Shown: in pieces, positions 2,679 through 37,792 of the stretch | How positions within the stretch are numbered: the stretch's first letter is position 1 | Layout: each line of letters opens with the position of its first letter | Assembly (NCBI GenBank): GCA_973895155.1 | Contig: OZ316892.1 | Coordinates: 16,606,357 to 16,670,356 of the forward strand | Origin: Marsupella aquatica | Lineage: Eukaryota > Plantae > Marchantiophyta | DNA length: 64,000 bases | Reading direction: 5' to 3' | Notes under the pieces: generated by a model | Database searches by the model: none | Told to the model about the DNA's origin: nothing | What the model saw: the letters and a program-made list of their open reading frames with translations, nothing else | Translations under genes and position numbers: made by a program

Positions 2679-2855
2679 TGTCGTGACATATAGTATCGTA
2701 GCCATAGTGTATCGAAAACATACAAGTCACCGGCAAGGCATACGTGCAAGCTGCTAGCAACCAACATCCTGAGAAAAAAGTCCAATCACATTCACAAGTG
2801 CCGAGAAAAAGCAAATGAAGTGGTATGTACGTAGTGGAGGTGTAAACCTCTGTAT
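2679..2855 (-). repeat. Terminal repeat B (177 bp) of the outer copy
   Basis: Homologous to 5402-5578, 5937-6113 and 37259-37434. Adjacent to a C7 run at 2856-2862 (G7 PPT on the sense strand). Confidence 0.9.
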
Positions 2856-2894
2856 CCCCCCCAGACCACAGCCAAAAGGAGGGCTGAAGAAAAT

Positions 2895-5397
2895 TCAGGT
2901 AGCACGTGGAGCACAAGAAGGGCAAAACCATAACCCTTCTGGCACCTGGGTAAGTTCAAGCCGAAGGCAGAAAAGATGGTACCCTCCATTGCAATTGTCA
3001 CACAACAGCATCTAGTCAGCATCATCAATTTGCAAACACACTTTGCAAGGGTAGTCCACAGGTGGAATCCAGGTAGAAGTCACAATGGTGGGATCCAGGT
3101 TAGGCAGATGACAAGGGGCGCAATTCTTGGCATTGTCAGCAATTATGCGCCCATCTGCCCCTTGTAACTCTAGCACTCCAGACGGTCGAATAGCTTTAAC
3201 CCTGAGAATAGTACGACTGGTAGAGGTGTCCAGGGTGTCATTAGCTTGCCGCTGCAAGTACACAAAATCTCCCACATCAAACTTCCTGACCTTGGGCTGA
3301 AAACTGCCCCCTTGTGTGTGTGCATAACGCAATGTGTCCCTGTGTTGTGCAATGGCCAAATTCTCCATGGCCATGGGCATAACCCTCCTGAATAGGGCAG
3401 CCCTCTCAGAGATCACATCAGACCAAGTCACAGCTGAATCCAAGTCCACCACCTGAAGCATGTGAGCAGCAATAGCAGAAGGTGGAACTGGGTGACGACC
3501 AAACAACAAGAAGTAGGGAGAAAAGTTAGACAGTGATGCATGTCTAGACATCCTATACCCCATGGCAATGTAGGGTAAGGCCAGGTCCCAATCCTCCTTG
3601 TTTTTGGTGAGGCAGATCTTCCGAAGGCCCTTCTTGCATGTCTGAACCATGCGCTCTGCCAAGCCATCTGCCTGTGGGTGATCTCGTGATGTCCGGCGAT
3701 GATCAATGAGGGCCTGATCAAGCAGCTCCTGGAACTCTCCTCTAAACTCTGAGCCCTGGTCAGTGAGACATTCTGCACAAGCTCCAAAGCGGCTGAGAAC
3801 TTGTTGCAGGAATGCCTGGCTGGTGCTACGGGAGGTCTTATCCGGCAATGCCACAAGTTCTATCCACTTGGAGAAATGCTCTATCATGATCATGATGTAG
3901 AGATTACCCCGAGATGTGAGGGGTAATTCTCCAGCCAAATCACATGACCAACGATAAAACATGCCCTGAATAGGGAGTGGATGAAGTGTGGGTTGCCGAG
4001 TCGTGAAAGAAGTCCTTACCCTATCACACTGCTCACACCGGGCAATAACATCTCGAACCTGGCCATGCATGCCTCTCCAATGATAATGAGGGACCAAGAG
4101 GCTGTAAGTCCTCTTAACGCCAAAATGACCAAGCTCAGAATGTACCTTACGAATAAGGCCAACCCTCTCATGAATGGGTGGAACCACCACTTCCCTGTCT
4201 GGCAAGCAGCGCACGAGATGATCTCCCTTCCACAAGTAGCGCTTGGACCTTTGCTGAATTCGGTCTCTCTGGGCAGCAGTAACATGTGTGGGGTACTCCC
4301 CATGCTGCAGAAATCTCAGAGTGTCGCTATCCTCCCATATGTCCACCACAGGTTGGTCAACAACATAGCATGGCAGCAAAGCAAGATAGGTCAATGCATG
4401 AAATGTAGGCAGGATGGAAACCTGGTCAAAATCTTGCCGTGCATCTGAGGAATCATCAGAGGTAATCAAAGGGCTGTGGGACATAGTGTCAGCATTCTGA
4501 TGTGTCAAACCAGGCCTATGAATTACCTCAAAGTCATACTCCTGGAGGATGAGTGCCCGACGAGCAAGCTTGCCAGTAACCTTGTCGTTAGTCATCAACC
4601 ACTTCAAGGGCTGGTGGTCGGTGTAGAGAGTAAACCTGGTCCCATAGAGGTAGGGCCTGTAATGTATGACAGCCCACACAACAGCAAGGCATTCACCCTC
4701 ATAAGAAGAATAATGACTCTCTGCCTGATTGTTGCTCCTGGATGCATAGACAATGACGTACTCTTTACGTTCCTCATCATGCTGGCCCAAAATGGCACCA
4801 ATCCCAAGGGCACTCCAATCTATGTGTAGCACAAAGACCTTGTTGAAATCAGGTCTTCTCAGCACCGGGTATTTTGAGAGCTTCTCCTTCAAAGTGGCAA
4901 ATGCTGCCTCAGCATCTGTACTCCATGTCCAAGTCACATTCTTTTTCAACAAAGCATACAATGGGTGTGCAATGGTGCTGAAATCTTTGATGTAGATCCG
5001 GTAGTAATTGCACAACCCAATGAAACTCCTCAAAGTGTGAACATCAGTAGGAGTGGGCATTTCCAAGATGGATACCACCTTGGCCCAGTGAGCCATGGTT
5101 CCATTTGGAAGAATGCGGTGCCCAAGGTATACTACTGATCTGACAGCAAATTCACACTTCTTGGGGTGTATCTTTAGGTTCACCTTCTTAAGCCTCATGA
5201 ATAGCTCCTCAAGGTCAAGTAGATGCTGGTCAAATCCTTTGCTGTGGACCAACACATCATCAATGTAGCATTTTAGAAACTCAGCACCTTGAAGAACCTG
5301 GTCCATGACTCTTTGAAAGAATATGGGCGCATTCTTCAAGCCAAATGGCATCACCAACCACTCCCATAGTTGGTTACTACCATGGAAAGCTGTTTTC
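2895..5397 (-). pseudogene. Outer-copy pol 3' half: RT (YIDD)-RNaseH-integrase-PHD
   Basis: Motifs MPFGLKNAP, YIDDVLV, DWSALGIGAIL, HSELGH..CEQC and WSCDLAG/LTDQGSEF/GLAERMV. The PHD finger is broken by a CAG>TAG stop at 3012-3014. Confidence 0.9.
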
Positions 5398-5401
5398 TGG
5401 C

Positions 5402-6113
5402 TGTCGTGACATATAGTATCGTAGCCATAGTGTATCGAAAACATACAAGTCACCGGCAATGCATATGTGCAAGCTGCTAGCAACCAACATCCTGAGAAAA
5501 AAGTCCAATCACATTCACAAGTGCCAAGAAAAAGCAACTGAGATGGTATGTACGTAGTGGAGGTGTAAACCTCTGTATGGCGTGATAGAAACAAACGTGC
5601 TGAAATCGAATCGAAAACCGGTGAGATGCCAAGGTCGGCCGGGAGCATCTAACGAATCACTATGTGAATTCCGTGTACGGAACCAACGAGCAGCCTCTGA
5701 AAAACCCTGTCTCACAGCGATTCAAGAAGAACTAAAGAACGGCAAAGAAAAACATGCCCTAAGTAGGACCGGGTCCAGGCGTCACACTAACAAACCCCTT
5801 TTGCTTCAAGAATAGCCCAGACTCGCTACAAGAACATGACACTAACTCAAGTAGTACACTAGCCCTAACCATACCTAGCGGGCATGCGAGGGACATGCCG
5901 ATGTGCACAAGCGACACTGTCCCTCGGCATGACAGCTATCGTGACATATAGTATCGTAGCCATAGTGTATCGAAAACATACAAGTCACCGGCAATGCATA
6001 TGTGCAAGCTGCTAGCAACCAACATCCTGAGAAAAAAGTCCAATCACATTCACAAGTGCCAAGAAAAAGCAACTGAGATGGTATGTACGTAGTGGAGGTG
6101 TAAACCTCTGTAT
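5402..6113 (-). repeat. 3' repeat block B1-gc-A2-B2 of the inner copy
   Basis: B1 and B2 (177 bp each) are nearly identical. A2 (356 bp) differs from A1 at about 8 positions, all transitions by eye. Confidence 0.92.
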
Positions 6114-6120
6114 CCCCCCC
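6114..6120 (-). promoter_or_regulatory. Putative polypurine tract (G7) immediately upstream of repeat B
   Basis: C7 on the + strand abuts B1. The same C7 is present at 2856-2862 in the outer copy. Confidence 0.6.
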
Positions 6121-6152
6121 AGACCACAGTCAAAAGGAGGGCTGAAGAAAAT

Positions 6153-9100
6153 TCAGGTAGCACGTGGAGCACAGGAAGGGCAAAACCATAACCCTTCTGG
6201 CACCTGGGTAAGTTCAGGCCAAAGGCAGAAAAGATGGTACCCTCCATTGCAATTGTCACACAGCAGCATCTGGTCAGCATCATCAATTTGCAAACACACT
6301 TTGCAAGGGTAGTCCACAGGTGGAATCCAAGTAGAAGTCACAATGGTGAGATCTAGGTTAGGCAGATGACAAGGGGCGCAATTCTTGGCATTGTCAGCAA
6401 TTGTGCGCCCATTTGCCCCTTGTAACTCTAGCACTCCAGACGGTCGAATAGCTTTGACCCTGAGAATAGTGCGACTGGTAGAGGTGTCCAGGGTGTCATT
6501 AGCTTGCCGCTGCAAGTACACAAAATCTCCCACTTCAAACTTCCTGACCTTGGGCTGAAAACTGCCCCCTCGTGTGTGTGCATAACGCAATGTGTCCCTG
6601 TGTTGTGCAATGGCCAAATTCTCCATGGCCATGGGCATAACCCTCCTGAATAGGGCAGCCCTCTCAGAGATCACATCAGACCAAGTCACAGCTGAATCCA
6701 GGTCCACCACCTGAAGCATGTGAGAAGCAATAGCAGAAGGTGGAACTGGGTGACGACCAAACAACAAGAAGTAGGGAGAAAAGTTAGACAGTGATGCATG
6801 TCTAGACATCCTATACCCCATGGCAATGTAGGGTAAGGCCAGGTCCCAATCCTCCTTGTTTTTGGTGAGGCAGATCTTCCAAAGGCCCTTCTTGCATGTC
6901 TGAACCATGCGCTCTGCCAAGCCATCTGCCTGTGGGTGATCTCGTGATATCCGGCGATGATCAATGAGAGCCTGATCAAGCAGCTCCTGGAACTCCTCTC
7001 TGAACTCAGATCCCTGGTCAGTGAGACATTCTGCACAAGCTCCAAAGCGACTGAGAACTTGTTGTAGGAATTCCTGGCTGGTGCTACGGGAGGTCTTATC
7101 CGGTAATGCCACAAGTTCTATCCACTTGGAGAAATGCTCTATCATGATCATGATGTAGAGATTACCCCGAGACGTGAGGGGTAATTCTCCAGCCAAATCA
7201 CATGACCAACGATAAAACATGCCCTGAATAGGGAGTGGATGAAGTGTGGGTTGCCGAGATGTGAAAGAAGTCCTCACCCTATCACATTGTTCACACCGGG
7301 CAATAACATCTTGAACCTGGCCATGCATGCCTCTCCAATGATAATGAGGGACCAAGAGGCTGTAAGTCCTCTTAACGCCAAAATGACCAAGCTCAGAATG
7401 TACCTTACGGATAAGGCCAACCCTCTCATGAATGGGTGGAACCACCACTTCCCTGTCTGGCAAGCAGCGCACGAGATGATCTCGCTTCCACAAGTAACGC
7501 TTGGACCTTTGCTGAATTCGGTCTCTCTGGGTTGCAGTAACATGTATGGGGTACTCCCCATGCTGCAAAAATCTCAGAGTGTCGCTGTCCTCCCATATGT
7601 CCACCACAGGTTGGTCAACGATGTAGCATGGCAGCAAAGCAAGATAGGTAGATGTATGAAATGTAGGCAGGATGGAAACCTGGTCAAAATCCTGCCGTGC
7701 ATCTGAGGGATCATCAGAGGCAATCAAAGGGCTGCGGGACATAGTGTCAGCATTTTGATGTGTCACACCAGGCCTATGAATTACCTCAAAATCATACTCC
7801 TGAAGTATGAGTGCCCAACGAGCAAGCTTGCCAGTAAGCTTGTCGTTGGTCATCAACCACTTCAAGGGCTGGTGGTCGGTGTAGAGAACAAACCTGGTCC
7901 CATAGAGGTAGGGCCTGTAATGTATTACAGCCCACACAACAGCAAGGCATTCACCCTCATAAGAAGAATAATGACTCTCTGCCTGATTGTTGCTCCTGGA
8001 TGCATAGGCAATGACGTACTCTTTACCTTCCTCATCATGCTGGCCCAGAATGGCACCAATCCCAAGGGCACTCCAATCTGTGTGTAGCACAAAGACCTTG
8101 CTGAAATCAGGTCTTCTCAGCACCGGGTATTTTGAGAGCTTCTCCTTCAAAGTGGCAAATGCTGCCTCAGCATCTGTACTCCATGTCCAAGTCACATTCT
8201 TTTTCAACAAAGCATACAATGGGTGTGCAATGGTACTGAAATCTTTGATGTAGATCCAGTAGTAATTGCACAACCCAATAAAACTCCTCAAAGTGTGAAC
8301 ATCGGTAGGAGTGGGCATTTCCAAGATGGATACCACCTTGGCCCAGTGAGCCATGGTTCCATTTGGAAGAATGCGATGCCCAAGATATACTACTGATCTG
8401 ACAGCAAATTCACACTTCTTGGGGTGTATCTTTAGGTTCACCTTCTTAAGCCTCATGAATAGCTCCTCAAGGTCAAGTAGATGCTGGTCAAATCCTTTGC
8501 TGTGGACCAACACATCATCAATGTAGCATTTTAGAAACTCAGCACCTTGAAGAACCTGGTCCATGACTCTTTGAAAGAATATGGGCGCATTCTTCAAGCC
8601 AAATGGCATCACCAACCACTTCCATAGTTGGTTACTACCATGGAAAGCTGTTTTCTTGCGGTCTTTTGCAAGCAGCAAAATCTGGTTGAAGCCTTGCCTT
8701 AGATCCACAAGAGTGAAGATGTCTGAGTCTCCAATGCTGTCAAATAGCTCCTCTGGCCGCGGCATGGGGTACCTGTCCTGGGGTGTGACCAGGTTCAATG
8801 GCCTATAGTCCCCACACATGCGCTTCTCTGTCCACAATCCACTGGAATCCTTCTTTGCTGGCATCATTATAGCTGCCGCAAAATCTGATGTAGATGGCTG
8901 AATAAGACCAGCTTCATAAAGCTCTTGGCACCTCTCATCCACCAGCTGCCACTCATGCTTACTCAAATGGTGTCTCCGCCTGAAGATAGGTGTTTCATCA
9001 GCCAACTCAATGGAGAACTGCATAGTCTTGCACTTACCCAAGTCCTTCATAGAGAAAGCAAACACATTCTCATGCTTGAGGAGCAAATTCAGTAGCTGGT

Positions 9101-10160
9101 CCTTCTGTCTTTTACTCAGGTGGTTGCCCATGATAAATGTGTAGTTGGCAACACTAGGAATAGGACCTGATGTACTCGTGCTTGAAGAGCCAGAAGTGCC
9201 AGCCTCTCCACTGTCCAAGCTGCTAGCATGCTGCTGATAAGGTGATGAGGCCTCTCTAAGGCCTGTTGTACCTGCTGATCTGAAGTGGTCCACACCATGA
9301 AACTCAGAAATAATGTCAGCCGCATTACAAGGGACCTCCTCCCCCCCAACACTTGGACTGAAGTGGTGAGTGTTGGACAGAGGTAAGTGCACCTGGTCTG
9401 GATGCCATGCAGCAGCACTGTGGAGTGGTAGGGCGGGAGCCCCTAATGCTGGAGGAATGTACATCTGAAAAAGGATGCAAGTGACCAGAAGCCAAGTGAG
9501 AGCATTGAGATCCATTACCCTGCCAAGTAAAGCATTCCTGGCCAGCTTGGTGATTTTGGTGTGACCTGTAGTACCGGGTTGGAAGCCCATAGCCCGTTCT
9601 CTCTCCTCAGGACTAGGTTCATCCCATGTACTGGTAGAATGTCGATAAACCAGACCAGGACCATCACCCTGAAAAGCATGTGCACCTGGAAAGGACACAA
9701 ATGTAGGCCAAGCAGCACGAGGTTGTCCAATGGTATTGGCTGGATACCAAGGTGCTGGCTCTTGCCGTGTAACTGGTTGGCAAGAACTGTCAGGATCCAA
9801 AATCTGGTCCACTGTAAGGTTAGTGTCCCTGGATGTGTGGTGAAGAGCCATCTCCAGCAAGGAAGGTGGTGCAAGGTTAGTCCAAAAGTTACAAAGACGA
9901 TGTGCATAAGAACCACAGTGCACTGCATCAATGGGTGGTCCCAAGTAGTGCTGGACCACACTGAAATCCTCTTTGACCTGTGGACGCTGGTCAAACTGAG
10001 ATGGAGTATTCTCAATGATATAACCAACAGCAGGATAAAGGGATTGAGCCCAGGTGAGAATCTGAACCAATGCTGTGAAAAGGCCAGAACGAGAATCATG
10101 CAGTCCAGCACCGTGACCAGCAGCTGAAAACCCTTGGCATTCCCAACCAGCTATGATCAA
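6153..10160 (-). CDS. Open pol segment: DNMT3-like C-terminal part, RT, RNaseH, integrase, PHD finger (1335 aa)
   Basis: IIAGWECQGF, YIIENT, AHRLCNFWTN, RMCGDYRPLN, YIDDVLV, RNaseH and integrase D,D35E motifs. C-terminal CKVC..CDNC..HLFC..CPSC is a C4HC3 PHD finger. Confidence 0.9.
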   Translation of the reverse strand: MIIAGWECQGFSAAGHGAGLHDSRSGLFTALVQILTWAQSLYPAVGYIIENTPSQFDQRPQVKEDFSVVQHYLGPPIDAVHCGSYAHRLCNFWTNLAPPSLLEMALHHTSRDTNLTVDQILDPDSSCQPVTRQEPAPWYPANTIGQPRAAWPTFVSFPGAHAFQGDGPGLVYRHSTSTWDEPSPEERERAMGFQPGTTGHTKITKLARNALLGRVMDLNALTWLLVTCILFQMYIPPALGAPALPLHSAAAWHPDQVHLPLSNTHHFSPSVGGEEVPCNAADIISEFHGVDHFRSAGTTGLREASSPYQQHASSLDSGEAGTSGSSSTSTSGPIPSVANYTFIMGNHLSKRQKDQLLNLLLKHENVFAFSMKDLGKCKTMQFSIELADETPIFRRRHHLSKHEWQLVDERCQELYEAGLIQPSTSDFAAAIMMPAKKDSSGLWTEKRMCGDYRPLNLVTPQDRYPMPRPEELFDSIGDSDIFTLVDLRQGFNQILLLAKDRKKTAFHGSNQLWKWLVMPFGLKNAPIFFQRVMDQVLQGAEFLKCYIDDVLVHSKGFDQHLLDLEELFMRLKKVNLKIHPKKCEFAVRSVVYLGHRILPNGTMAHWAKVVSILEMPTPTDVHTLRSFIGLCNYYWIYIKDFSTIAHPLYALLKKNVTWTWSTDAEAAFATLKEKLSKYPVLRRPDFSKVFVLHTDWSALGIGAILGQHDEEGKEYVIAYASRSNNQAESHYSSYEGECLAVVWAVIHYRPYLYGTRFVLYTDHQPLKWLMTNDKLTGKLARWALILQEYDFEVIHRPGVTHQNADTMSRSPLIASDDPSDARQDFDQVSILPTFHTSTYLALLPCYIVDQPVVDIWEDSDTLRFLQHGEYPIHVTATQRDRIQQRSKRYLWKRDHLVRCLPDREVVVPPIHERVGLIRKVHSELGHFGVKRTYSLLVPHYHWRGMHGQVQDVIARCEQCDRVRTSFTSRQPTLHPLPIQGMFYRWSCDLAGELPLTSRGNLYIMIMIEHFSKWIELVALPDKTSRSTSQEFLQQVLSRFGACAECLTDQGSEFREEFQELLDQALIDHRRISRDHPQADGLAERMVQTCKKGLWKICLTKNKEDWDLALPYIAMGYRMSRHASLSNFSPYFLLFGRHPVPPSAIASHMLQVVDLDSAVTWSDVISERAALFRRVMPMAMENLAIAQHRDTLRYAHTRGGSFQPKVRKFEVGDFVYLQRQANDTLDTSTSRTILRVKAIRPSGVLELQGANGRTIADNAKNCAPCHLPNLDLTIVTSTWIPPVDYPCKVCLQIDDADQMLLCDNCNGGYHLFCLWPELTQVPEGLWFCPSCAPRAT

Positions 10161-10180
10161 ATCAAGGGAGCCAAGAAGGG

Positions 10181-13100
10181 TTAAGTGCCGGTGCCGGACA
10201 AGCTGGATATCTGGAGGAAAGAAAGAAAATGCAGACTTCCATGCACTATGTGGAAACTGCTGGGGAAATCGCTCTGAAAATTCAGCAGACGGGATTCAGC
10301 CACTTGCCTTGCACTTGGATCAATATCCACATAGATGTACTGCTTCACCACCATGCCAGACTTTAGGAGAGCTTCCAGGCCTGTAGAAATGCCACCAAAA
10401 AGCTCAAGCAATGTAAGGTCATCTGAAGGAGGAGTCCAGGTAACTGGTGCACTCAAGATTGGGGCTATTGGTTGTCCATTATGCTGCCCAAGGTCCTCAA
10501 ATTTGTGCAATGCAGCCACCAAAGGTCCATGGGCTGCTTGGAGCCGTTGTACCACCTCTGGTTGATGATCCACGTTGCTGGAAAGTGCTGCCACACGTGC
10601 AGCAGCATGTGCAGTAGCCACCTCATCCTCATCCTCCTCAATCCAATCCTGCAATGGGTGGTTGACATAGGTAGCTGTGTGCACTGCTTTCAACACACAG
10701 TGGTGAGCCATAGGGGTATGGGCACCATGCAAATCAAGTGGAATGTATCCCAAGTGTGAGCCATCCGTATGCCAATCAACTCTGTAGTATGCATGCTCAT
10801 GCCAGTTGTCAATGGTAAAACCTGGTGGGAACAAAGTCTCCTGGCCAATGAGCACATCATACGTAGTGGCATTGGTAACCAAACATCTGACTGGGAAATG
10901 CAGTTCCTGATCTGTACCTCCATTAAAAGTGAGAGTGAGTAAAGTAGAACTCTCACCCAGCACATCCTCCACAGTGCCACTAGCAGTCGGAATGTGCCAC
11001 CTGGACTGCTGTAAATGATCAATCAGCACTCCCATCTTCTTGGCAAACTGAATGCCCAAGATTACTGGTTGAGCGCCTGTGTCTAGCATGACCACCTGAG
11101 GAGTGTGACCCTCCAACTTGACTGCTGAATTCCTGTTGTCAACAATGGCAATGGTGGTGGAAACTAAAGTCCTGTCACTAGGCACCACTTTTGGCAAATG
11201 ATGAGGTACCTTGTGAAGGGAGTTAGTGTCCATGGTCTTCCCACTCAACAGCATAGCCAGGAAAGATGGAGCAGCATGACCAGAATCAAGTGTAGATCTG
11301 ATCACATAATCTGCAGCAATACTGTCATCTCTACCACTGGAAATCGGTACTGGGATAGCCAAACCAGTGGAAGCATGCAATGGAGAAGAAGAAGGTCCAG
11401 TATTAACATGAGATTGGACCTCCAAAACCGGTGTCACAAGGGCTGATGAAGAATGCAGTGAGCCCTCTAGCGCTCTGATGATAGCTCTAGCATCCAGCTG
11501 TAAATCATGGCAACTGAAAAGTGGAGTGGTAAGAATCCTTTGTGCCATATCGGAGGTGAAATGCTCAAGCAACTCAGGAAAAACAACTCCCTGTGAAATG
11601 TTAGCAGCACCTGGTGGTGGAATGGATGTAGCTGCAGCTCCCTCCCCCCTCGCCAACAAGGTTTAGGGTTTAGGGGACCAGCAGCAAGACCATCAGCTTG
11701 TACAATGTGGCGTGTGGGAGCAATACGGGAGGCAGCACTGGCCTGTTGGTAAGCAAAATAGGAAGGGCAGAATGAATCTGAAAATTCTGCTGTAAGGCCA
11801 GGCTGTGTAGCAGAGGACAGCACACACTCACCCATATGAGCATCAAATGGCAAGCCATAGAAAGAGCGGGGTAGGGGTGCTGAACTGTCAGTGGTGCCTG
11901 GGCCAGGGATGGGTTGCACGTGACCAGCCGGTTGAGAAGGACCAGCAGAGGCAGTGGACTTGCCTTTGATGTTGGCAAGTTGGGCACGTAATGACTCAAC
12001 CTCATGAGTCAGAGACTGGAGTTGAGTGGCCTGTGCGTTGTGAGCCTCCTTCTGAGCGGGTTGCTTCTGTTGCTGCTTGGGCAATTTGTTAGCACTGGAT
12101 GCTTTGCCACTGGAAGGAGGAGCAACTGATGCAGTAGGAGCCCTCCTAGCTGGTGGGGGAGTGGAAATAGGAGCAGGATGAGTGGCCTGCTGTCGTAGCT
12201 GCTTCCTCTCGGGGAATTTGGCAAAACAAACTACCTCCAAGTGGCCCACTTTCTCGCAAAAATCACAAGACAGGTCCTCAGCAACAATATCACATTCATT
12301 AGCCTTGTGATTAGGGTTACCACAGTAGTTGCAAGATGGTAGCATGAAAGCAGCATTTGCTGGCTTGGTCTTGGAACTATACTGTGGCACACGGGAAGGA
12401 GTGGCCAGTGTAGGGGCAGCAGCCTGGTACCTGGATCGCGGTGGACGCGCAATACTGGCCTCATAATATGCACGGGCCAACTCAAGTTTCTCAGCAGTGT
12501 CATAGACATTGAGCAAGGTGTAGCTGTCTCCAAACTCTGAGAATACTTGCTGCAACACTTGTGAATGGAGAGTTGGGGTGCCCTCCAACGCACGAAGATA
12601 GCGATGAGCAGCTTCCAGGTCAGTGATGCTCTGGGTGTCTTCCTTCAGCTTGAGAAGCCGGCGATACAACATCTTCAATGTTTCATCGCGCTGCCTCACA
12701 AATGTGGCCAACTGCATGATTTTGTCAGCACTCTTGATTGGGAATTCCAATTCAAGAACCTGGAAAAACTCAGCCACTGGATCAACAAAGGCAGGGGAAT
12801 CAATGGTGGGAGAAATGCCTGATGTAGCCTATGCCAAGACAGTGGGAGTAACTGGTGCAGTGGTGGGAACTGGAGTAGGAGGGGAAGTGGCAGGAGCAGC
12901 AGCATGGGCTGCAATGGCATTCTGTAATGCCAGTTGTGAGGCAGCCGCAATTGCAGTGGCATAGGCAGGGTTAGGCAATTGTGTGACAACAAGCAGCCGT
13001 TGAGAATGCTGCTCATACACATCCAAAGCCTCGTGGTGCACATACCTGGCTAGCTGCTTAAATGCAAAAGCATTTGTGAAATTGCTGCCATACTTCAACT

Positions 13101-13473
13101 CCAATTCGTAAACGATAGTGTAGAAAGTGGATTTGAACTCACGTAAAGAGACAGTGCCTGGCCGCTCGCTGAAGCGCTCAATGCGGCCAGATGAGTGGCT
13201 GGCATCCATGCTGTATGTTGGTGAAGCTGGAACAATCACCGATGCAGAAGGAGAAAAAGGCAAAGAAGTGATAGCAGGCTTTGGGGTAGAGGTGAAGCGA
13301 CCGCCAAATGTAGCAGAAGGGTTGCGTGGTGTGGGTGTTGCTACTGTCTGCTGACGTCGTCGAAATTGCCGAGACTCCAATGAAATTGGCACCAATGGTC
13401 GTGGATCACTCCGTAAGTGGTACCGGGGTGTTGGTGGCGATGAGCTGCTACCTCCTGGCTCGTCGGCTGACAT
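10181..13473 (-). pseudogene. Inner-copy gag-protease-DNMT N-terminus (frameshifted)
   Basis: Two zinc knuckles (CNYCGNPNHKANEC, CDFCEKVGHLEVVC), protease VMLDTGAQ and DNMT motif I LELFGGISTG. Frameshifts near 10282 and 11665; in-frame TAG at 12829-12831. Confidence 0.85.
11661..11675 (+). repeat. Interstitial telomeric patch (TTTAGGG)x2
   Basis: GTTTAGGGTTTAGGG replaces ~73 bp that are present in the outer copy at 18271-18343. Confidence 0.8.
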
Positions 13474-14906
13474 GCTGCATGCTCACCCAGGGTGCCAATG
13501 GGAAAGAAATTGACAAGAAAAAGGAGTGGCAGCCCCAAGGCTAGGAAATAAACGGTACAAGGCAGCAATGTGTAGAATGTGTAAGCGCTGAGAAACTGTC
13601 AAAGTCTATGCAGATGACATGTGGCGGCAGCAAAGAAATCCGGGAAGAATGGGCCCTTGAAAACATGAATAGGGGCCCCCCTTAAGTCTATACATTGGGC
13701 CCCTTTAAGTGTATACGTCGGGCCCCTATGTGGACCCGAAAAAGGAAGGACCGGCCGGCACGGTGCCCTATGCAAGTAGTCGAGAACAAAGCAAGAGCGA
13801 ACGGAAAGAAATGGGCCCTGCAACACGTGAAAGGGGCCCCTTAAGTGTATACACATCGGCCCAATGTGGACCCGGGAATTGGCAGCAGGTCGATCATCGT
13901 GCAGCGAAAAAGTGAGACAAGCTGAAAAAGGTGAAAAGAAAACGGGAAGAGTGAGGCGAAGAAAAAGAAATGAGCCCTGTGCATAGGGCTTCGCACCCCC
14001 TTCCCTCCTCCTTATGAGCTCCCGAAGCCTCCTTGGGGCTTCGTGCCCTGGCAGGCCTAAGTACTCCCGTGTGAGGGAGTTCGAATTGAACTCCCCTCCC
14101 CTCCTTTAATGCAGCTTAGGGCCTTGTGCCCTCTCCTGGCACTCTCGCTCCCCCTCCTTGCCTCCTTTCATTGCAACATAGGGCCTCGTGCCCACTCCTT
14201 GCACTCTCGCTCCCCTCCTCCTGGCTTTAATTGCTTATTAGGGCCTCGTGCCCTCTCTCCTTGCGCTTGTCTCCCCCTGCTTCAATGCTGCTTCGTGTGC
14301 TGCAGGAGGACTCCCGAGAAGGGAGTCGTATGTACTCCCCCTCCCCCTTTAATGCAGCATAGGGCCTCATGCCCACTCGCTGCTGCCTGCCTCGGCTCTG
14401 TCTCCCCCCTTGCGCTTGTGCTCGCTAGTCGACTCCCTTCCTCCTTAATTAAATGCTGGCAAAAACGAGAGCGCACGATGCCCTATGCGCAGCCTGCCTT
14501 ATGCGATCGGGAGGGAGGCAAAGGGGAGACTATGGCCGAAAACGGCAAAAAAGAGAAAAACGGGGCGCGCGGTCGGAAGGGAAGTGGTCGCGCGGCAGCC
14601 GTGGCCGGGAAAATGCCCATAAAAACTAACAAACAAGGGTCTTAAAAACGCGAGCGAGGCCGCAGCGGCCTATGCAGTCGGCAGCAAGTCGCCGATGTAG
14701 GTCACAAAGAAGGTTGCGGCCGGAAAAGGAAAACCTGGGCCCCGACGGGAGTGTTATGTGTATACACTTAAGTATACACATAACTCCACACTAAACCCAT
14801 AGTTTTGAAGCCTCGTTCCAATGTCTATCAAGGAAATTGCAACGGCTTAACCAAAAATTGTCGAAACTGCCACGAGAAATCTTCTTCCCGTCACCGCTAA
14901 CTCGAG

Positions 14907-15079
14907 AGTTCTTCTTGAATAAAAGGCGTGATAGAAACAAATGTGCTGAAATCGAATCGAAAACCGGCGAGATGCCAAGATCGGCCGGGAGCATCTAACG
15001 AATCACTATGTGAATTCCGTGTACGGAACCGACGAGCAGCCTCTGAAAAACCCTGTCTCACAGCGATTCAAGAAGAACT
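14907..15079 (-). promoter_or_regulatory. Putative self-priming site: 14-bp inverted repeat pairing the sequence just downstream of A1 with a site inside A1
   Basis: AGTTCTTCTTGAAT (14907-14920) is the reverse complement of ATTCAAGAAGAACT (15066-15079). No tRNA-type TGG PBS is present at this position. Confidence 0.55.
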
Positions 15080-15280
15080 GAAGAACGGCAAAGAAAAACA
15101 TGCCCTAAGTAGGACCGGGTCCAGGCGTCACACTAACAAACCCCTTTTGCTTCAAGAACAGCCCAGACTCACTACAAGAACATGACACTAACTCAAGTAG
15201 TACACTAGCCCTAACCATACCTAGCGGGCATGCGAGGGACATGCCGATGTGCACAAGCGGCACTGTCCCTCGGCATGACA
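14925..15280 (-). repeat. 5' terminal repeat A1 (356 bp) of the inner copy
   Basis: Homologous to 5579-5934, 21210-21560, 24698-25051 and 37441-37792. Confidence 0.92.
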
Positions 15281-15284
15281 TGGC

Positions 15285-18200
15285 GGTCCTTTGCAAGCAG
15301 CAAAATCTGGTTAAAGCCTTGCCTTAGATCCACAAGAGTGAAGATGTTTGAGTCTCCAATGCTGTCAAATAACTCCTCTGGCCGTGGCATGGGGTACCTG
15401 TCCTGGGGTGAGACCAGGTTCAGTGGCCTGTAGTCCCCACACATGCGCTTCTCTGTCCACAATCCACTGGAATCCTTCTTTGCTGGCATCACTGTAGCTG
15501 CTGCAAAATCTGATGTAGATGGCTGAATAAGCCCAGCTTCATATAACTCTTGGCATCTCTCATCCACCAGCTACCACTCATGCTTACTCAAACGGTGTCT
15601 CCGCCTGAAGATAGGTGTTTCATCAGCCAACTCAATGGAGAACTGCATAGTCTTGCACTTACCCAAGTCCTTCATAGAGAAAGCAAACACGTTCTCATGC
15701 TTGAGGAGAAAATTCAGCAGCTGGTCCTTCTGTCTTTTACTCAGGTGGTTGCCCATGATGAATGTGTAGTTGGCAACACTGGGAATAGGACGTGATGTAA
15801 TCGTGCTTGAAGAACCAGAAGTGCTAGCCTCTTCACTGTCCAAGCTGCTAGCATGCTGCTGATAAGGTGATGAGGCCTCTCCAAGGCCTGCTATATGTGT
15901 TGCTCGGGTCTGATCCACACCATGAAACTCAGAAATAATATCAGCCACATTACAAGGGACCTCTTCCCCCCCAACACTTGGACTGAAGCGGTGAGTGTTG
16001 AAGAGAGGTAAGTGCACTTGGTCGAGATGCCATGTAACAGCACCATGGAGTGGCAGGGCTGGAACTCCTGATGCTGGATGAATGTACATCTGAAAAAGGA
16101 TGCAAGTGACCAGAAGCCAAGTGAGAGCATGGAGATCCATTACCCTGCCAAGTAAAGCATTCCTGGCCAGCCTGGTGATGTGGGTGTGGGCTGTAGTACC
16201 GGATTGGAAGCCCATAGCCCGTTCTCTCTCCTCAGGACTAGGTTCATCCCATGTACCGGTAGAATGTCAGTAAACCAGGCCAGGACCATCACCCTGAAAA
16301 GCATGTGCACCTGGAAAGGACACAAATGTAGGCCAAGCAGCATGGGGCTGTCTAATGGTATTGGCTGGATACCAAGGTGCTGGCTCTTGCCGTGTAACTG
16401 GTTGGCAAGAACTGTCAGGATCCAAAATCTGGTCCACTGTAAGGTTAGTGTCCCTGGATGTGTGGTGAAGAGCTAACTCCAGCAAGGAAGGTGGTGCAGG
16501 GTTAGTCCAAAAGTTACGAAGACGATGTGCATAAGAACCATAGTGCACTACATCAATGAGAAGGGGTGGTCCCAAGTAGTGCTGGACCACACTAAAGTCC
16601 TCTTTGACCTGTGGACGCTGGTCAAACTGAGATGGAGTATTCTCAATGATATAACCAACAGCAGGATAAAGGGATTGAGCCCAGGTGAGAATCTGAACCA
16701 ATGTTGTGAAAAGGCCAGAACGAGAATCATGCAGTCCAGCACCGTGACCAGCAACTAAAAACCCTTGGCATTCCCAACCAGCTATGATCAAATCAAGGGA
16801 GCCAAGAAGGGTTAAGTGCCGGTGCTGGACAAGCTGGATATCTGGAGGAAAGAAAGAAAATGCAGACTTCCATGCACTGTGTGGAAACTGCTGGGGAAAT
16901 CGCTCTGAAAATTCCAGCAGATGGGATTCAGCCACTTGCCTTGCACCTGGATCAATGTCCACATAGATGTACTGCTTCACCACCATGCCAGACTGTAGGA
17001 GAGTTTCCATGCCTGTAGAAATACCACCAAAAAGCTCAAGCAATGTAAGGCCATCCGGAGGAGGAGTCCATGTAACTGGTGCACTCAAGATTGGGGCTAT
17101 TGGTTGTCCATTATGCTGCCCAAGGTCCTCAAATTTGCGCAATGCAGCCACCAAAGGTCCATGGGCTACTTGGAGCCTTTGTACCACCTCTGGTTGATGA
17201 TCCACGCTGATGGAAAGTGCTGCTATATGTGCAACAACATGTGCAGCAGCCACCTCATCATCATCCTCCTCAATCCAATCCTGCAATGGGTGGTTGACAT
17301 AGGTAGCTGTGTGCACTGCTTTCAACACACAGTGGTGAGCCATAGGTGTATGGGCACCATGCAAATCAAGTGGAATGTAGCCCAAGTGTGAGCCATCCGT
17401 ATGCCAATCAACTCTGTAGTATGCGTGCTCATGCCAGTTGTCAATGGTAAAACCTGGTGGGAACAAAGCCTCCTGGCCAATGAGCACATCATACGTAGTG
17501 GCATTGGTAACCAAACATCTGACTGGGAAATGCAATTCCTGATCTGTACCTCCATTAAAAGTGAGAGTGAGTAAAGTAGAACTCTCACCCAGCACATCCT
17601 CCACAGTGCCACTAGCAGTCCGAATGTGCCACCTGGATTGCTGTAAATGATCAGTCAGCAGTCCCATCTTCTTGGCAAACTGAATGCCCAATATCACTGG
17701 TTGAGCGCCTGTGTCTAGCATGACCACCTGAGGAGTGTGACCCTCCAACTTGACCGCTGAATTCCTGTTGTCAACAATGGCAATGGTGGTGGAAACTAAA
17801 GTCCTGTCACTAGGCACCACTTTTGGCAAATGATAAGGTACCTTGTGAAGGGAGTTAGTGGCCACGGTCTTCCCACTCAACAACATAGCCAGGAAAGATG
17901 GAGCAGCATGACCAGAATCAAGTGTAGCTCTGGTCACACAATCAGCAGCAATAGGTACTAGGGCAGCCAAACCAGTGGAAACATGTAAAGGAGAAGAAGA
18001 AGGTCCAATATGTACATGAGATTGGACCTCCAAAACCGGTGTCACAGGGGCTGATGAAGAATGCAGTGAACCCTCTAGCGCTCTGATGACAGCTCTAGCA
18101 TCCAGCTGTAAATCATGGCAACTGAAAAGTGGAGTTGTAAGAATCCTTTGTGCCATACCGGAGGTGAAATGCTCAAGCAGCTCAGGAGAAACAACTCCCT

Positions 18201-19911
18201 GTGAAATGTCAGCAGCACCTGGTGGTGGAATGGATGTGGCTGCAGCTCCCTCCCCCCTCGCCAACAAGGTGCGCTCTTCAGCAAGTGTGAGGGGCTGAAA
18301 AGATTGGGGCATGACAGCCCGAGCTCCCCTGGCTCTAGTCATAGGACTAGCAGCAAGACCATCAACCTGTACAATGCGGCGTGTGGGAGCAATACGGGAG
18401 GCAGCACTGGCCTGCTGGTAAGCAAAATAGGAAGGGCAGAATGAATCTGAAAATTCTGCTGTAAGGCCAGGCTGTGGAGCAGAGGACAGCACACACTCAC
18501 CCATATGAGCATCAAATGGCAAGCCATAGAAAGAGTGGGGTAGAGATGCTGAACTGTCAGTGGTGCCTGGGCCAGAGATGGGTTGCACGTGACCAGCCGG
18601 TTGAGAAGGACCAGCAGAGGCAGGTGACTTGCCTTTGATGTTGGCAAGTTGGGGCACGTAGGGACTCAACCTCATGAGTCAGAGACTGGAGTTGAGTTGC
18701 CTGGGCATTGTGAGCCTCCTTCGGAGCTGGGTTTAGGGTTTAGGGTTTAGGGTTTAGGGTTCAGGGTTCAGGTTTAGGGTAACATGAAAGCATGAAAGCA
18801 ACATGTGCTGGTTTGGTCTTGGAAGCATACTGTGGCACACGGGAAGGGGTGGCCATTGTAGGGGCAGCAGCCTGGTACCTGGATCGCGGTGGATGCGCAA
18901 TATTGGCCTCATAATGTGCATGGGCCAACTCAAGTTTCTCAGCAATGTCATAGACATTGAGCAAGGTGTAGCTGTCTCCAAACTCTGAGAATACTTGCTC
19001 CAACACTTGCGAATGGAGAGCTGGTGTGCCCTCCAATGCGCGAAGATAGCGATGAGCAGCTTCCAGGTCAGTGATGCTCTGGGTGTCCTCCTTCAGCTTG
19101 AGAAGTCGGCGATACATCATCTTCAATGTTTCATCGCGCTGCCTCACAAAGGTGGCCAAGTGCATAATTTTGTTAGCACTCTTGATTGGGAATTCCAATT
19201 CAAGAACCTGGAAAAACTCAGCCACTGGATCAGCAAAGGCAGGGGAATCAATGGTGGGAGAAATGCCTGATGTAGCCTATGCCAAGATAGTGGCAGTAAC
19301 TGGTGCAGTGGTGGGAACTGGAGTAGGAGGGGAAGTGGTAGGAGCAGCAGTATGGGCTGCAATGGCATTCTGTAATGCCAGTTGTGAGGCAGCCACAATT
19401 GCAGTGGCATAGGCAGGGTTAGGCAATTGTGTGATAGCAAGCAGCCGTTGAGAGTGCTACTCATACACATCCAAAGCCTCGTGGTGCACATACCTGGCTA
19501 GCTGCTTAAATGCAAAATCATTTGTGAAATTGCTGCCATACTTCAACTCCAATTTGTAAACGATAGTGTAGAAAGTGGATTTGAACTCACGCAAAGAAAC
19601 AGTGCCTGGCCGCCCACTGAAGCGTTCAATGCGGCCAGATGAGTGGTTGGCGTCCATGCTGTATGTCGGTGAAGCAGGAACAACCACGGATGCAGAAGGG
19701 GTAAATGGTAATGAAGTGATAGCAGGCTTTGGAGTAGTGGTGAAGCAACCGCCAAATTGAGCAGAAGGATTGCGTGGTGTGGGTGCTGCTGCTATCTGTG
19801 GACGTCGTCGAAATTGCCGAGACTCCAATGAAATTTGCACCAATGGTTGTGGATCACTCCGTAAATGGTACCTGGGTGTCGGTGGCGATGTGCTGCTACC
19901 TCTGCTGACAT
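15285..19911 (-). pseudogene. Outer-copy gag-protease-DNMT3-like-RT N-terminus
   Basis: ORF 16267-18675 carries LDTGA, LELFGGISTG, YIYVDID, LDLIIAGWECQGF, YIIENT and AHRLRNFWTN. 15571-16215 carries RNALLGRVMDL. Several stops and frameshifts; the Gag knuckles are deleted. Confidence 0.88.
18729..18780 (+). repeat. Interstitial telomeric patch, about 7 TTTAGGG/TTCAGGG units
   Basis: Replaces ~275 bp, including both CCHC knuckles, present in the inner copy at ~12063-12337. Confidence 0.9.
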
Positions 19912-21209
19912 GCTGTGGTGTCCTTGCCGGATCGACGGTCTGATGTGTATGCCGGGCCCTCAACCTTACGTAGATGCCATGTGGCGGCAGCAAAGAAATT
20001 GGGAAAATATGGGAAAATATGGGCCCTATTCAGCGGTAGTCGAATATGTGAACCGGGCCCCTCTTAAGTGTATACACATTCGGGCCCCATTGTGGACCCG
20101 GAAACTGCAGCCGGACCGGTCGAGTGTGTATACACACTCGTAGCACACGGCCCTATGCAGCGCTAGTCGGACGGCTATGGAAAAGTCAAGGAGTCACTAT
20201 GGCCGACGAGGGAAAGAAACGGGAGGGCACGATGCCCTATGTACATACTGCGGAGCACAAAAGGTGTAAGGAGGAAAAGGCAAGACGCAGCGTGGCAAGG
20301 GCGAAGTAAAGAGATGGCGAAAAGAAAAGCATCGGGCCCCCATAGAGGGGCTACAAACTCCCCCCTCCTCTCGTGCAATGTAATTTGGGCTCGTGCCCTG
20401 GCAGGAGCACTCCCGAGAAGGGAGTCGACTTAACTCCCCTCCCCCTTTAATGCTTCATAGGGCCTCGTGCCCTCTCCTCTCGCAGGCTCGCTTCAACTCC
20501 TCCCCCTCGTTAATGCTGAATGGGGCCTTGTGCCTGGCAGAAGTGTGAGTCCCAAGAGGAGGGAGTCGAATGTACTCCCTCTCCTCCTTTTAATGCAGCA
20601 TAGGGCCTTGTGCCCTCTCCCTACGCTCCTGCCTTCACTCCCCCTCCCCCTTCTTTAATGCTGCCTAGGGCCTCGTGCCCTCTCCAGGCGCTCCTTCCCC
20701 TTCCTCTGGCTGCTTAGAAATGGGCGAGGCAAGGGCACGATGCCCTATGCACAGCCTGCACACCAAAGCGGAAGGAGGTCGAGAGAAAGAGAAGAAAACG
20801 GGGCCCCCAAAGGCGAAAACGTAAAGAGGAGGTCGGGGTGGAAGCGTGTCGAAACGAGGGCACACGGCCCTATGCAGGCATCTCGCTGCGGCCGAGGCAA
20901 AACTCGCCGGCAGCTGTGGCCGGGAATGCAAAAACAACCCCAAAAGCAGTCGAGGCAGCAAGCGGCAGTAACAGTAAGAAGGAGCAAAGGGGTCGCGGAT
21001 GCAACCAGAAAATGAACTCTGGACCTCCTCGGGAGCACTGATATGTGTATACACTTAAGTATACACATAACAACATAAACCCATAACTTTCAACTCGTCG
21101 CTCCGATGTTCGTCAAAGAAATTGCAATAGCTTCACCAGAAATTGTCGAAATCGTCACGAGCAATCTTCTTCCCCTCACTGCCAACTCGGCAGTTCTTCT
21201 TGAATAAAA

Positions 21210-21560
21210 GGCGTAAGAGAAACAATCGTACTGAAATCGAATCAAAACCGGCAGGATGCCAAGATCAGCCGAGAGCATCTAACGAATCACTGTGTGAATC
21301 CCGTGTACGGAACCGACGAGCACTGTCTGAGCTCTGTCAACAACGATTCAAGAAGAATTGCCAACCCACAAAGAAAGACATGCCCTAAGCAAGCAAAGCC
21401 CTGACGTCACACTAACAAGCACATTTGCTTCAAGAACGGCCCAGACTTGCTACAAGAACATGTCGCTAACTCAGCTAGTACACTAGCCCTAACTACATAC
21501 CTAGCGGGCAGGCGAGGGACATGCCGATGTGCATAAGACGCACTGTCCCTCGGCATGACA
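21210..21560 (-). repeat. 5' terminal repeat A of the outer copy
   Basis: Homologous to A1, ends CATGACA, and has no B sequence next to it. Confidence 0.9.
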
Positions 21561-21994
21561 CCACTTCCTTCTCGCCATGCGCCCCGGCTGCCCTTATGGA
21601 GATGCCAGGTGGCGCCCACCGGGGCTGCCCCTTATGGACTTCTTCACTCCCTTTCCTCAATGCCCCTTTACTCCAAAAAACTTTCAACCTCTCAAAAGAA
21701 CTCATTCTCTTCTTTTGGCCCTTGTTGTGGTTATACCCATTTAACCCCAAAAAGAAAAGTTAACCTCTTGGACTTATAGGGGGAACTTGACAATGGTTCA
21801 AGCGAAATGGCAAGGCCACCTATTTGCCCCCCCCCCTAGGTTGCCGTGGCCGTTTAGAACAATTATGAAAATAAAATAAAATAAAATAAAGTCCTCCTGG
21901 CAGCACCAACTTGAAAGGATGGAATTAACTCAAAAAAAATTTAAAATGGCTTATTTATAGTGGCTATTAACAATGCACAGGCCTCCGCGACCAG

Positions 21995-23212: not shown

Positions 23213-23214
23213 AA

Positions 23215-25051
23215 ACGTGCAAAATGTGTAAACACGCTAGAAAAACTGTCACGTAAAAAAACCGTCGGAGAAAAAGGACCCTTCAAAACTCCAATTGTAC
23301 CCGTGTTGTGCTTGTCGGATCAACCGTCTGATGTGTATGCAGGGCTCTCAGCGCTAGGCAGATAAAATGTGGCGACAGCAAAGAAATCCGGGAAGAATAG
23401 GCCCTTAAAAATGTGAATCGCCCCCCCCTTAAGTGTATACACATCCGGGCCCCATTGTGAACCCGAAAACTGCAGCCGAACCGGCCGAGTGTATATACAC
23501 ACTTGTGGCACGCTCCCTATGCAGCGGTAGTTGGAAGGCGTCGAAAAGAGGCGAGGAGTTACTATGGCCGGCGAGGGAAAGAAACATGAGGCAACTCGCG
23601 ATGGCAGCAGCCAAGGCAAGGCAAGGCAAAAAGGAGAGAAGCCGACAGAAAAGAAACAAGCGGGCCCCTCTTAAGTCGAGGGGGAAGGAAGGAAAACGGT
23701 CAAAAAAGGGAAAACCGGGTTTAGGGAGCCCTGTGCACTGACAGTCGATGGTGAAGGGCGAGGATAGGGAAAAAAGTGGGCCTTAATTGCGTGAGCCCTG
23801 CATAGGGCTTTGCGCCACCCCCTCCTTATGAGCTCCCCCCTCCCCTCCTTAATGATTCCTGGTGGGCCTCGTGCCCTCTCCTCTTGCTTCAACTCCCCCT
23901 CCTCTTTAATGCTGAAATGGGGCCTGGCAGAGTGACTCCCAAGAGAGAGGGAGTCGTATGTACTCCCCCCCTCCTTGTAAGGCAGCATAGGGCTGCATGC
24001 CCTCTCCTGGCACTCGCTCCCCCTCCTCCTTGCTTTTGCTTGTGCTTGGCTCCCCTCCTTTAATGCTGTATAGGGATTCGTGCCCTCCTCTCTTGCTTCA
24101 ACTCCCCTCACCCTCCTTTATTCTCCATAGGGCCTCGTGCCCTCGGCTCTCGCTCCCTCTCCCTTGTTTTAATTGCAACGGCAGGAAGCTGGCAGCGGCA
24201 TCGGAAAACATTGAGGCAAAAGAGTGAGGCAAGATGGAACAAAAATGGCCAGGAAGGGGAGAAGTGCCAAGGCGAGGCCACGGCGCAGCGGAAATGGGGA
24301 GAAAATGGGCGTGCGGCCCTATGCAGGCCGCGTTGTAGTCAAAAGAGCAAGGCCGGCTCACCGGCAGCCGTGGTCGGAGAATACGATAAATGGCCCCAAA
24401 ATTAAAGAAATGGCGATGGCGCAACGGCAGCAGGTTGCGGCAGTTGTAAAGAGGTCGCGCGACGGCTAGGAAAAAAATCCAGGATCAAAAGCACGGGCCC
24501 AAACAGAGGCGTTATGTGTATACTTACACATAACACCACATCAAACCCATAACTTTTAACCCTCCATTCCAATCCTGCTTAGAGAAATTGCACCAGCTTT
24601 GACAGAAATTGTATGTACCAATACGAGCAATTGAGAAGCACAATGTCTGCGATCTTCTTCCCCTCACCGCCAACTTGACAATTCTTCTTGAATAAAAGGC
24701 GTAAGAGAAACAAACGTACTGAAATATATTGAATCGGAAACCGGCAGGATGCCAAGATTGGTCGGGAGCATCTAACGAATCACTGTGTGAATCCCGTGTA
24801 CGGAATCGACGAGCATTGTCTGAGCTCTGTCAACAGCAATTCAAGAAAAACTAAAAACCAACAAAAAAAGACATGCCCTAAGTAAGCAAAGTCCTTGTGT
24901 CACACTAACAAGCGCGTTTGCTTCAAGAACACCTGGAATTTGCTATAAGAACATATCGTTAACTCAAGTAGTACACTAGCCCTAACTATACCTAGCGGGC
25001 ATGCGAGGGACATGCCGATGTGCATAAGAGGCACTATCCCTTGGCATGACA
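23215..25051 (-). mobile_element. Third, truncated copy of the DNMT-Gypsy family (repeat A plus 5' leader only)
   Basis: Repeat A at 24698-25051 ends GGCATGACA. The leader resembles 13560-14920 and 19930-21205. The left boundary is approximate. Confidence 0.8.
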
Positions 25052-25522
25052 AATTTGATTTCCCTTAAGTGGGATGTCAGTGATGGCTCGTGTACTGCCT
25101 GCCACAAGAGCATTGAAACAATGGAACACATGTTCTATGACTGCTTGATACTTCGGCGATGGTGGGACCATCTTGAACAGGTTGCTGGGGGCACCAGTCT
25201 CAACAAGGCCGTTGGTTGCTCCTTCTTTGGCAAGATTGATATTGCCATATATACGGTCTCAAAAAATCACCTTGGCTTCCTCCTGCTGATCCATGAGATG
25301 ATTACCAGCATCCGGATTGAAAGGCGTCAATGCACATGTCAGGCTAAAGCTATGAGGTTCCCTCTCCACCTTATTCTCCATGGAGCTACTATGAACATCC
25401 ACGCAACTCTTCATTGGACTAGGAGCATTAAGAAGGGCATAAGACTCAATCAAACTCTCGCTGGAATTACTCAGATGACTGGGCCAATAGGAGTAACAAC
25501 AACACCTATGGAAGTATATTGA
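25052..25522 (+). mobile_element. L1-type LINE ORF2 C-terminal fragment (zf-RVT)
   Basis: DGSCTACHKSIETMEHMFYDC...WW matches the C-x2-C..E..H.F..C zinc-binding motif of plant LINEs. Truncated at the third Gypsy copy. Confidence 0.7.
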
Positions 25523-37258: not shown

Positions 37259-37792
37259 TGTCGTGACATATAGTATCGTAGCCATAGTGTATCAAAAACA
37301 TACAAGTCACCGGCAAGGCATATGTGCAAGCTGCTAGCAACCAACATGCATAGAAAAAGTCCCATCACATTTACAAGTGCCAAGAAAAAGCACATGAGGT
37401 GGTATGTACGTAGTGGAGGTGTAAGCCTCTGTATATAAAAGGCGTAAGAGAAACAAGCGTACTGACTCGAATAAAAAACCGGCGGGATGCCAAGATCGGC
37501 CGGGAGCATCTAACGAATCACTATGTGAATCCCGTGTACGGAACCGACGAGCACTGTCTAAGCTCTGTCAACAGCGATTCAAGAAGAACTGAAAATCGAC
37601 AAAAAGAAACACGCCCTAAGTAAGTCAAGTCAAGGCGTCACACTAACAAGCACATTTTGCTTCAAGAACGGCCCAGACTTGCTACAAGAACATCACACTA
37701 ACTCAAGTAGTACACTAGTCCTAACTACATACTTAGCGGACATGCGAGGGACATGTCGATGTGCAGAAGAGGCACTGTCCCTCGGCATGACA
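37259..37792 (-). mobile_element. Lone A-B unit (534 bp) of the DNMT-Gypsy family
   Basis: TGTCGTGAC..GGCATGACA with 4-bp TSD ACCA (37255-37258, 37793-37796). B part 37259-37434, A part 37435-37792. Confidence 0.92.

Follow-up and report, generated by a model that had tools for sequence, protein, structure and literature searches.

The window (the whole stretch of 64,000 nucleotides analysed here) harbours a Ty3/Gypsy element with a DNA methylase, a DDE integrase and a PHD finger, built as A-internal-B-A-B. The element is predicted to prime reverse transcription with its own RNA, and to integrate via a palindrome inside its LTR after its cDNA ends have been joined. For these two properties together, the sequence comparisons presented here suggest a probability of about 0.6.

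Structure, coding regions and relatives of the element

The copies of the element found in the window, and the parts of the inner copy, are organised as follows.

5402..15280, minus strand: inner element, A-internal-B-A-B, with the 4-bp duplication GCCA, inserted in the reverse transcriptase (RT) gene of the outer copy
2679..21560, minus strand: outer element, A-internal-B, with the 4-bp duplication GTGG
23303..25051, minus strand: third copy, repeat A and leader only
37259..37792, minus strand: solo A-B, with the 4-bp duplication TGGT; its A/B joint retains AT from the side on which the primer-binding site (PBS) lies
14921..15280, minus strand: repeat A1, starting with TG at the integrated left end, 348/356 identical to A2; predicted part of U3, R and U5
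11467..13482, minus strand: gag region, interrupted by a stop codon, with a weak zinc knuckle
10181..11662, minus strand: aspartic protease and start of the DNA methylase, frameshifted versus its neighbours
6153..10295, minus strand: pol frame with part of the C5 DNA methylase, RT, RNase H, zinc-binding and DDE integrase, and PHD finger
6114..6120, minus strand: G7 run of the polypurine tract (PPT), directly before B1, at an identical position in all relatives examined
5937..6113, minus strand: repeat B1, 176/177 identical to B2; predicted first part of U3
5925..5946, no strand assigned: B1/A2 boundary with the palindrome CA-GC-TG (one C>T here), predicted internal integrase site
5579..5934, minus strand: repeat A2, stopping 4-6 nt short at the A/B joint
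5402..5578, minus strand: repeat B2, with CA at the integrated right end

The inner, outer and solo elements all have TG...CA ends, and 4-bp duplications were present in the three of them. These target duplications led to the rejection of a tandem duplication as the source of inner and outer copy. The window copies are decayed, with stop codons and frameshifts, and the window family is present at high depth in the sequencing runs. Diverged repeats of about 60 bp were found in the leader of all three copies (14060-14420, 20380-20715 and 23840-24180). The outer element apparently lies in the downstream repeat of an unrelated Ty3/Gypsy element, whose integrase and 3′ end, including a G10 run, occupy 21561-23300. 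The insertion target of the third A copy is a LINE-like zf-RVT fragment (25028-25522).

Within the pol frame, the catalytic residues of the integrase are D1033, D1093 and E1128, and the C5 DNA methylase corresponds to PF00145 of Pfam. The domain order PR-RT-RH-IN with a D,D(35)E integrase is that of Ty3/Gypsy elements, as is the combination of TG...CA ends with a short target duplication. Pfam analysis detected no chromodomain or SH3_Tf2-1 in the element proteins at E up to 5, the PHD finger being located at the C-terminus, and no tyrosine recombinase domain among the element ORFs scanned.

The protein search revealed at least 200 matches at E 1e-50 or better. Among the 120 matches listed were Calypogeia fissa (62%), Klebsormidium nitens, Closterium, Pleodorina and Chlamydomonas reinhardtii. 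An RT tree was built with 47 of the 120 listed matches, five loci and the window, and named sequences of Tf1 or Tcn1 are absent from it. A clade of 30 rows (SH-aLRT 99), separate from the chromodomain-bearing matches, unites the window with K. nitens and the algal matches. Within the tree, the window RT groups with K. nitens KFL_009030040, which, judging by its domains, would be a copy of KnitGypsy-Dnmt3. A non-seed plant is the probable host.

Relatives were also obtained by a metagenome scan, from the best 80 of 392 confirmed loci; seventy loci with a match to B and one more with a match to A constitute family M. Loci L083 to L088 are eukaryotic retrotransposon contigs within prokaryotic genome bins, likely contamination. 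No DNA match at E 1e-3 was found between A and B of the window and the fetched loci, and the alignment of the window A with the A of family M scored 23, no better than chance (shuffle maximum 28, 200 shuffles). The search for the palindrome in four genomes returned only already known loci, with one match for the control pattern. In the viral collection there was no match to the single protein query or to query alignment A2, and query alignment A1 recovered two distant integrases.

The self-complementary pair

The sequence-only reading had proposed that the 14 nt right after repeat A are complementary to an upstream site within A, and all six coordinates that it gave are correct. Segments 14907-14920 and 15066-15079 are perfect reverse complements, paired at 14/14 positions on the element (minus) strand, with 159 nt from start to start. 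The pair, its counterparts in the other copies and the adjoining leader segment are listed here.

15066..15079, minus strand: predicted self-primer of 12-14 nt and predicted RNA 5′ end, with a 14/14 complement and compensatory changes in relatives
14907..14920, minus strand: PBS, beginning exactly where repeat A stops
21346-21359 / 21192-21205, minus strand: primer / PBS of the outer copy, a near-pair with one A-C mismatch
24839-24852 / 24680-24693, minus strand: primer / PBS of the third copy, a near-pair with two G-U wobbles
14884..14898, minus strand: leader segment that, by constrained folds of the three window copies, is predicted to base-pair with the A end (about 14925-14937) and thereby enclose the PBS

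The recurrence of the pair in the outer and third copies with one or two mismatches, reported earlier from the sequence, was thus confirmed. The primer 14-mer recurs at 5720-5733, within the 3′ copy of A, and at 37577-37590, within the solo A-B. In the outer and third copies, each mismatch is due to one G>A or C>T substitution, and the mismatches therefore represent decay; covariation among the window copies was rejected.

Each window copy was compared with 5000 dinucleotide shuffles, the complement being required to start 0-5 nt after repeat A and its partner to lie within repeat A. The longest perfect complement is 14 nt in the inner copy (equalled by 0/5000 shuffles), 12 nt in the outer copy (2/5000) and 9 nt in the third copy (70/5000). 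None of the 29 variant rows (2% or more) from the four sequencing runs falls in either 14-mer. Only the PBS is informative in this respect, since there are no variant rows at all across 15053 to 15110, which makes the variant-free primer 14-mer weak evidence.

Family M possesses AGTTTTTCTAGAAT within A and its complement directly after A. The primer of family M differs from that of the window at 2/13 positions, both compensated. Among the eight M 5′ ends, three pair at 14/14, one has a single wobble and four have 2 to 4 mismatches, L076 having four. A third primer sequence is present in L083 (58% identity), where 10/13 positions are changed and all are paired (1/300 shuffles). Covariation, which had been suggested as a check on the pair, was therefore found across families (M and L083), the window copies showing decay only. 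The paired G>A and C>T changes of L070 were not counted as covariation, since A2 of L070 is unchanged and both changes are of the deamination type. L086 carries a 12-nt pair (2/300 shuffles), which is not attributable to an A end. L085 has the palindrome and the G-run, but its self-complement is at chance level (9 nt, 102/300 shuffles). Among 25 A2 copies of family M the primer is conserved (0.013, versus 0.08-0.13 in its flanks), with several other 12-nt blocks at least as conserved.

A TATA box is located 31-34 nt upstream of the primer in all eight M 5′ ends, and L083 has TATAGC 29 nt upstream of its primer. In the window family, TACTTAGG, which is not a canonical TATA, lies at -32 of the primer. 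The PBS region contains no TGG. This, together with the compensatory changes across families, supports the earlier claim of a self-priming signal instead of a tRNA primer site, and it is likely that the element primes reverse transcription with the 5′ bases of its own RNA.

Priming with its own RNA is established for Tf1 (PMC7175516, PMC4600332), where two stems flank the PBS in a three-duplex pretzel structure (10.1101/2022.12.06.519325). Of these flanking stems, one was predicted in all three window copies and no consistent second one was found; in family M they are variable. Under free folding from 15079, the primer of the inner copy favours a rival partner at 14885, and the outer and third copies favour other pairings.

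Similar to the Tf1/sushi elements (Tf1, Tf2, Tj1, Tosmo) and the plant Tcn1, the 5′ segment of the LTR transcript is complementary to a site after the LTR, and as in Tf1/sushi there is no tRNA site. The PBS starts with AT, as in Tf1 (PMC11042837). However, the primer is 12-14 nt here and 11 in Tf1/sushi, a PHD finger is present instead of a chromodomain, pol includes a DNA methylase, and the repeats are split, whereas Tf1/sushi elements have complete direct LTRs at both ends, with CA closing the 5′ LTR ahead of the PBS. The term Tf1-like thus applies to the priming and does not extend to the element, which lacks a chromodomain and two complete terminal LTRs, A being half an LTR. Judged by its lack of a chromodomain and by its LTR structure, the element is outside Tf1/sushi, and the likeness is one of priming.

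The internal palindrome, the integrated ends and the A/B joint

In the window, family M, L083/84, L085 and L086, B starts directly after the G-run. Since B starts at the polypurine tract and the PBS follows A, the functional LTR would be B+A (B-GC-A). The B/A boundary, located within this LTR, is CA-nn-TG inside a conserved palindrome, GACA-GC-TGTC. The spacer at the boundary is 2 nt in 30/32 cases, and it is GC or a C>T/G>A derivative in 29/32. The palindrome is conserved in L083-L086, down to 39% RT identity.

Integrated copies stop at the CA of the palindrome and start at its TG. Among the M elements with both ends, six out of seven have 4-bp duplications, and the seventh agrees at 3/4 bases; the flanks of L067 give a matching ACAA. 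In contrast to the integrated ends of Ty3/Gypsy elements, those found here are not the cDNA ends defined by PPT and PBS: in the M loci, 0/98 B starts and 0/17 A ends adjoin host DNA (pattern search, duplicates included). At the B end, two or three ACGACA-like sub-repeats follow each other at intervals of about 16 nt (L003, about 925-962; window, 5402-5425), possibly extra integrase binding sites. At 1805-1928 of L005, the inside of an inverted A is fused to a B end, corresponding to a nested insertion or to auto-integration.

The integrase likely acts at the palindrome inside the LTR. If both strands were cut after CA, the CA ends would be recessed and the overhangs 2 nt long, which is the geometry of processed retroviral ends. 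In the IS3 family of insertion sequences (IS911, IS3) a DDE enzyme acts on abutted ends separated by a short spacer in a circle, and this is paralleled by the predicted cut. The origin of the junction differs, the IS3 family being DNA transposons whose junction is made by the transposase and not by reverse transcription. The integrases of HIV-1 and foamy virus can cleave palindromic junctions of 2-LTR circles, where, as predicted here, an internally cut palindrome gives processed ends (PMC1905944, PMC1180852, PMC4372172). In those viruses, however, cleavage takes place where the two ends abut, and the route is an accessory one, whereas here the site lies within the LTR, the actual junction is ragged and all insertions seen were of this one kind.

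After removal of 16 duplicates and four loci without flank, 50 of the 70 M loci with B remained, comprising 26 with B-A-B, 20 with B only and four incomplete. The B-A-B layout is thus present in 26 distinct M insertions, and it also occurs in L084. The A/B joint of this layout is ragged, resembling joined cDNA ends. Twenty-seven B-A-B joints were labelled by eye: 11 are of the CA-AT-ACA type, nine have further AT and seven have other indels. At least four joint forms, one of them retaining three PBS bases, were found in the window family. The window A ends in TTTT or TTTTAT, while CA is present instead in M and L083. We infer from these sequences that the A/B joint is the meeting point of two cDNA ends.

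Tf1 cDNA often retains PBS sequence at its end (PMC11042837). In many A/B joints AT, the first 2 nt of the 14-nt site, is retained; this extra AT may belong to the LTR or be retained PBS, so that the primer actually used may measure 12 to 14 nt. In each family, the final two bases on the A side match the two that open B (AT, AT and CA; window 14921/6113, L083 7415/6947), an identity that could help end joining. The joint types are scattered on the tree, with 15 changes compared with a shuffled mean of 12.8, the tree being star-like with 3/24 inner branches starred. The identity of B1 and B2 in M copies is 0.917 within a copy versus 0.881 across copies, and in only 7/25 M copies does B2 find its best match in the B1 of its own copy.

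Proposed life cycle and alternative explanations

In the proposed life cycle, transcription would start at about 15079, and the first 12-14 bases of the RNA, complementary to the site just after A, would pair with it and serve as primer. RNase H would release this primer, as in Tf1. With B right after the G-run, ordinary LTR logic would produce the linear cDNA [B-GC-A]-PBS-internal-PPT-[B-GC-A], and imprecise joining of its two ends would create the A/B joint. At the CA-GC-TG of the left LTR, the DDE integrase would then cleave each strand after CA, yielding ends identical to those of normal 3′ processing, which would be inserted. The products found have TG...CA ends, lack the 2-nt spacer and are flanked by 4-bp duplications. 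Copies with A-internal-B might derive from one-LTR circles, from a double cut or from B-B recombination, and the solo A-B from A-A recombination.

Six elements with both ends are A-internal-B-A-B, three are A-internal-B, and none has the mirror layout A-B-A-internal-B (6 vs 0, p=0.016). A symmetric two-LTR circle has two sites, so the mirror layout would also be expected from it. Preferential use of the left site in cis, a quicker collapse of A-B-A, assembly bias or post-integration joining could account for the asymmetry. It is unexpected from a freely symmetric circle and in this respect speaks for a self-primed cycle without a free circle, which we consider rather unlikely and yet the most serious of the alternatives. 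In such a cycle, the host would join the cDNA ends after integration, or B-A-B would be inherited via read-through RNA, as in PAT/Ngaro-like elements. If the integrase cut the left internal site of linear cDNA and inserted the new ends, and the host later joined the original ends, the final sequence would be identical. The low proportion of M copies in which B1 best matches its own B2 also favours a cycle of this kind. Nevertheless, the variant with post-integration joining fails to explain the asymmetry as well, and inheritance of the joint is at odds with the mixture of joint types found within the starred pair and within each of the two multi-row starred clades, in a tree that is weak.

The other alternatives concern the complement itself. 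It might be a structural element, either for DIRS-like end-pairing in circle formation or as a packaging signal, with priming by something else. In its repeat layout the element resembles DIRS (PMC5890265), an internal complementary region is required by DIRS-1, whose primer is described as unknown (PMC7192593), and L085 is without the pair. However, the site adjoins the end of A exactly as a minus-strand primer requires, its partner lies 31-34 nt after the TATA in family M, and this partner is not at the element terminus, so a structural role appears improbable. Even less probable is priming by a host tRNA or tRNA half with an incidental LTR complement. About 2% of plant elements use half tRNAs (PMC6317226), and the ARAGORN search covered the window and 912 kb of loci, neither containing a tRNA; against this explanation stand the missing TGG, three different PBS sequences each matched in cis, and an Rfam search with no tRNA-like match and two chance matches only. 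The primer is rich in pyrimidines, and nesting and decay are seen in the window copies, as a chance inverted repeat or an artefact of assembly or nesting would allow. Such an origin is refuted by the shuffles of the inner copy, the repeated layout in the M insertions and L084, and the exact target duplications, and we give it next to no weight.

Among known elements, KnitGypsy-Dnmt3 of Klebsormidium nitens is similar in the DNA methylase in a Gypsy pol, the DIRS-type A-coding-B-A-B repeats, noted there in a figure legend, and the RT grouping (de Mendoza et al. 2018, PMC5890265). The part of that description available to us mentions no primer, polypurine tract, target duplication, internal palindrome or replication model, and the lineage is extended here to a land-plant-like host and chlorophyte-like relatives. 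Gypsy-DNMT3 is mentioned once in the accessible text of a 2026 preprint (10.64898/2026.05.21.726589), and Gypsy-7a_cRei has a PHD finger but ordinary-looking LTRs (10.1101/2022.06.16.496473). Split direct repeats of the form A1-ORFs-B1-A2-B2 are shared with PAT-like elements, Ngaro and VIPER (PMC6681497), and a circular intermediate has been proposed for the DIRS order (PMC7192593). Split repeats otherwise accompany tyrosine recombinases (PMC6681497, PMC7192593); unlike those elements, which encode such a recombinase, the one described here has a DDE integrase, TG...CA ends and 4-bp duplications. Self-priming has been predicted for 12% of the plant elements surveyed, there only for Tcn1 and TAR (PMC6317226). 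New in this regard are a separate lineage without chromodomain and covariation as support.

With odds slightly better than even, the attachment site of the integrase has shifted, in an old green-lineage Ty3/Gypsy clade, away from the cDNA ends and to a palindrome within the LTR. What defines LTR elements is an integrase that acts on linear cDNA ends, and circles are mostly seen as dead ends. With the attachment site inside the LTR, every productive copy would first have to join its cDNA ends. If this is true, the clade would be an LTR retroelement whose normal route is the two-LTR circle, a side product elsewhere, and a structural bridge between Gypsy and the split-repeat DIRS elements. It would also allow the old question of two-LTR circles as true integration precursors to be studied in a natural system. 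The move was perhaps favoured by self-priming, since cDNA ends of the Tf1 type often retain primer-derived tails. All insertions seen end at the internal palindrome, which would account for the layout noted in 2018 without a mechanism. Such elements would be missed, or misfiled as DIRS, by LTR-finding programs. No description of an LTR element with an internal integrase site emerged from the literature searches; one may be contained in theses, Repbase, subscription papers, figures or bioRxiv supplements.

The window also contains features outside the element copies. A PIF/Harbinger-type transposon was found at 56781-60019, with a DDE_Tnp_4/Plant_tran ORF on the minus strand and a NAM-associated ORF on the plus strand. 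An uninterrupted frame of 542 aa (61435-63063) encodes a cytochrome b5-fused fatty acid desaturase. An 84-bp unit is arranged in a tandem array at 33903-34574, and two consecutive minus-strand frames of coiled-coil character and no clear family are present at 546-2201.
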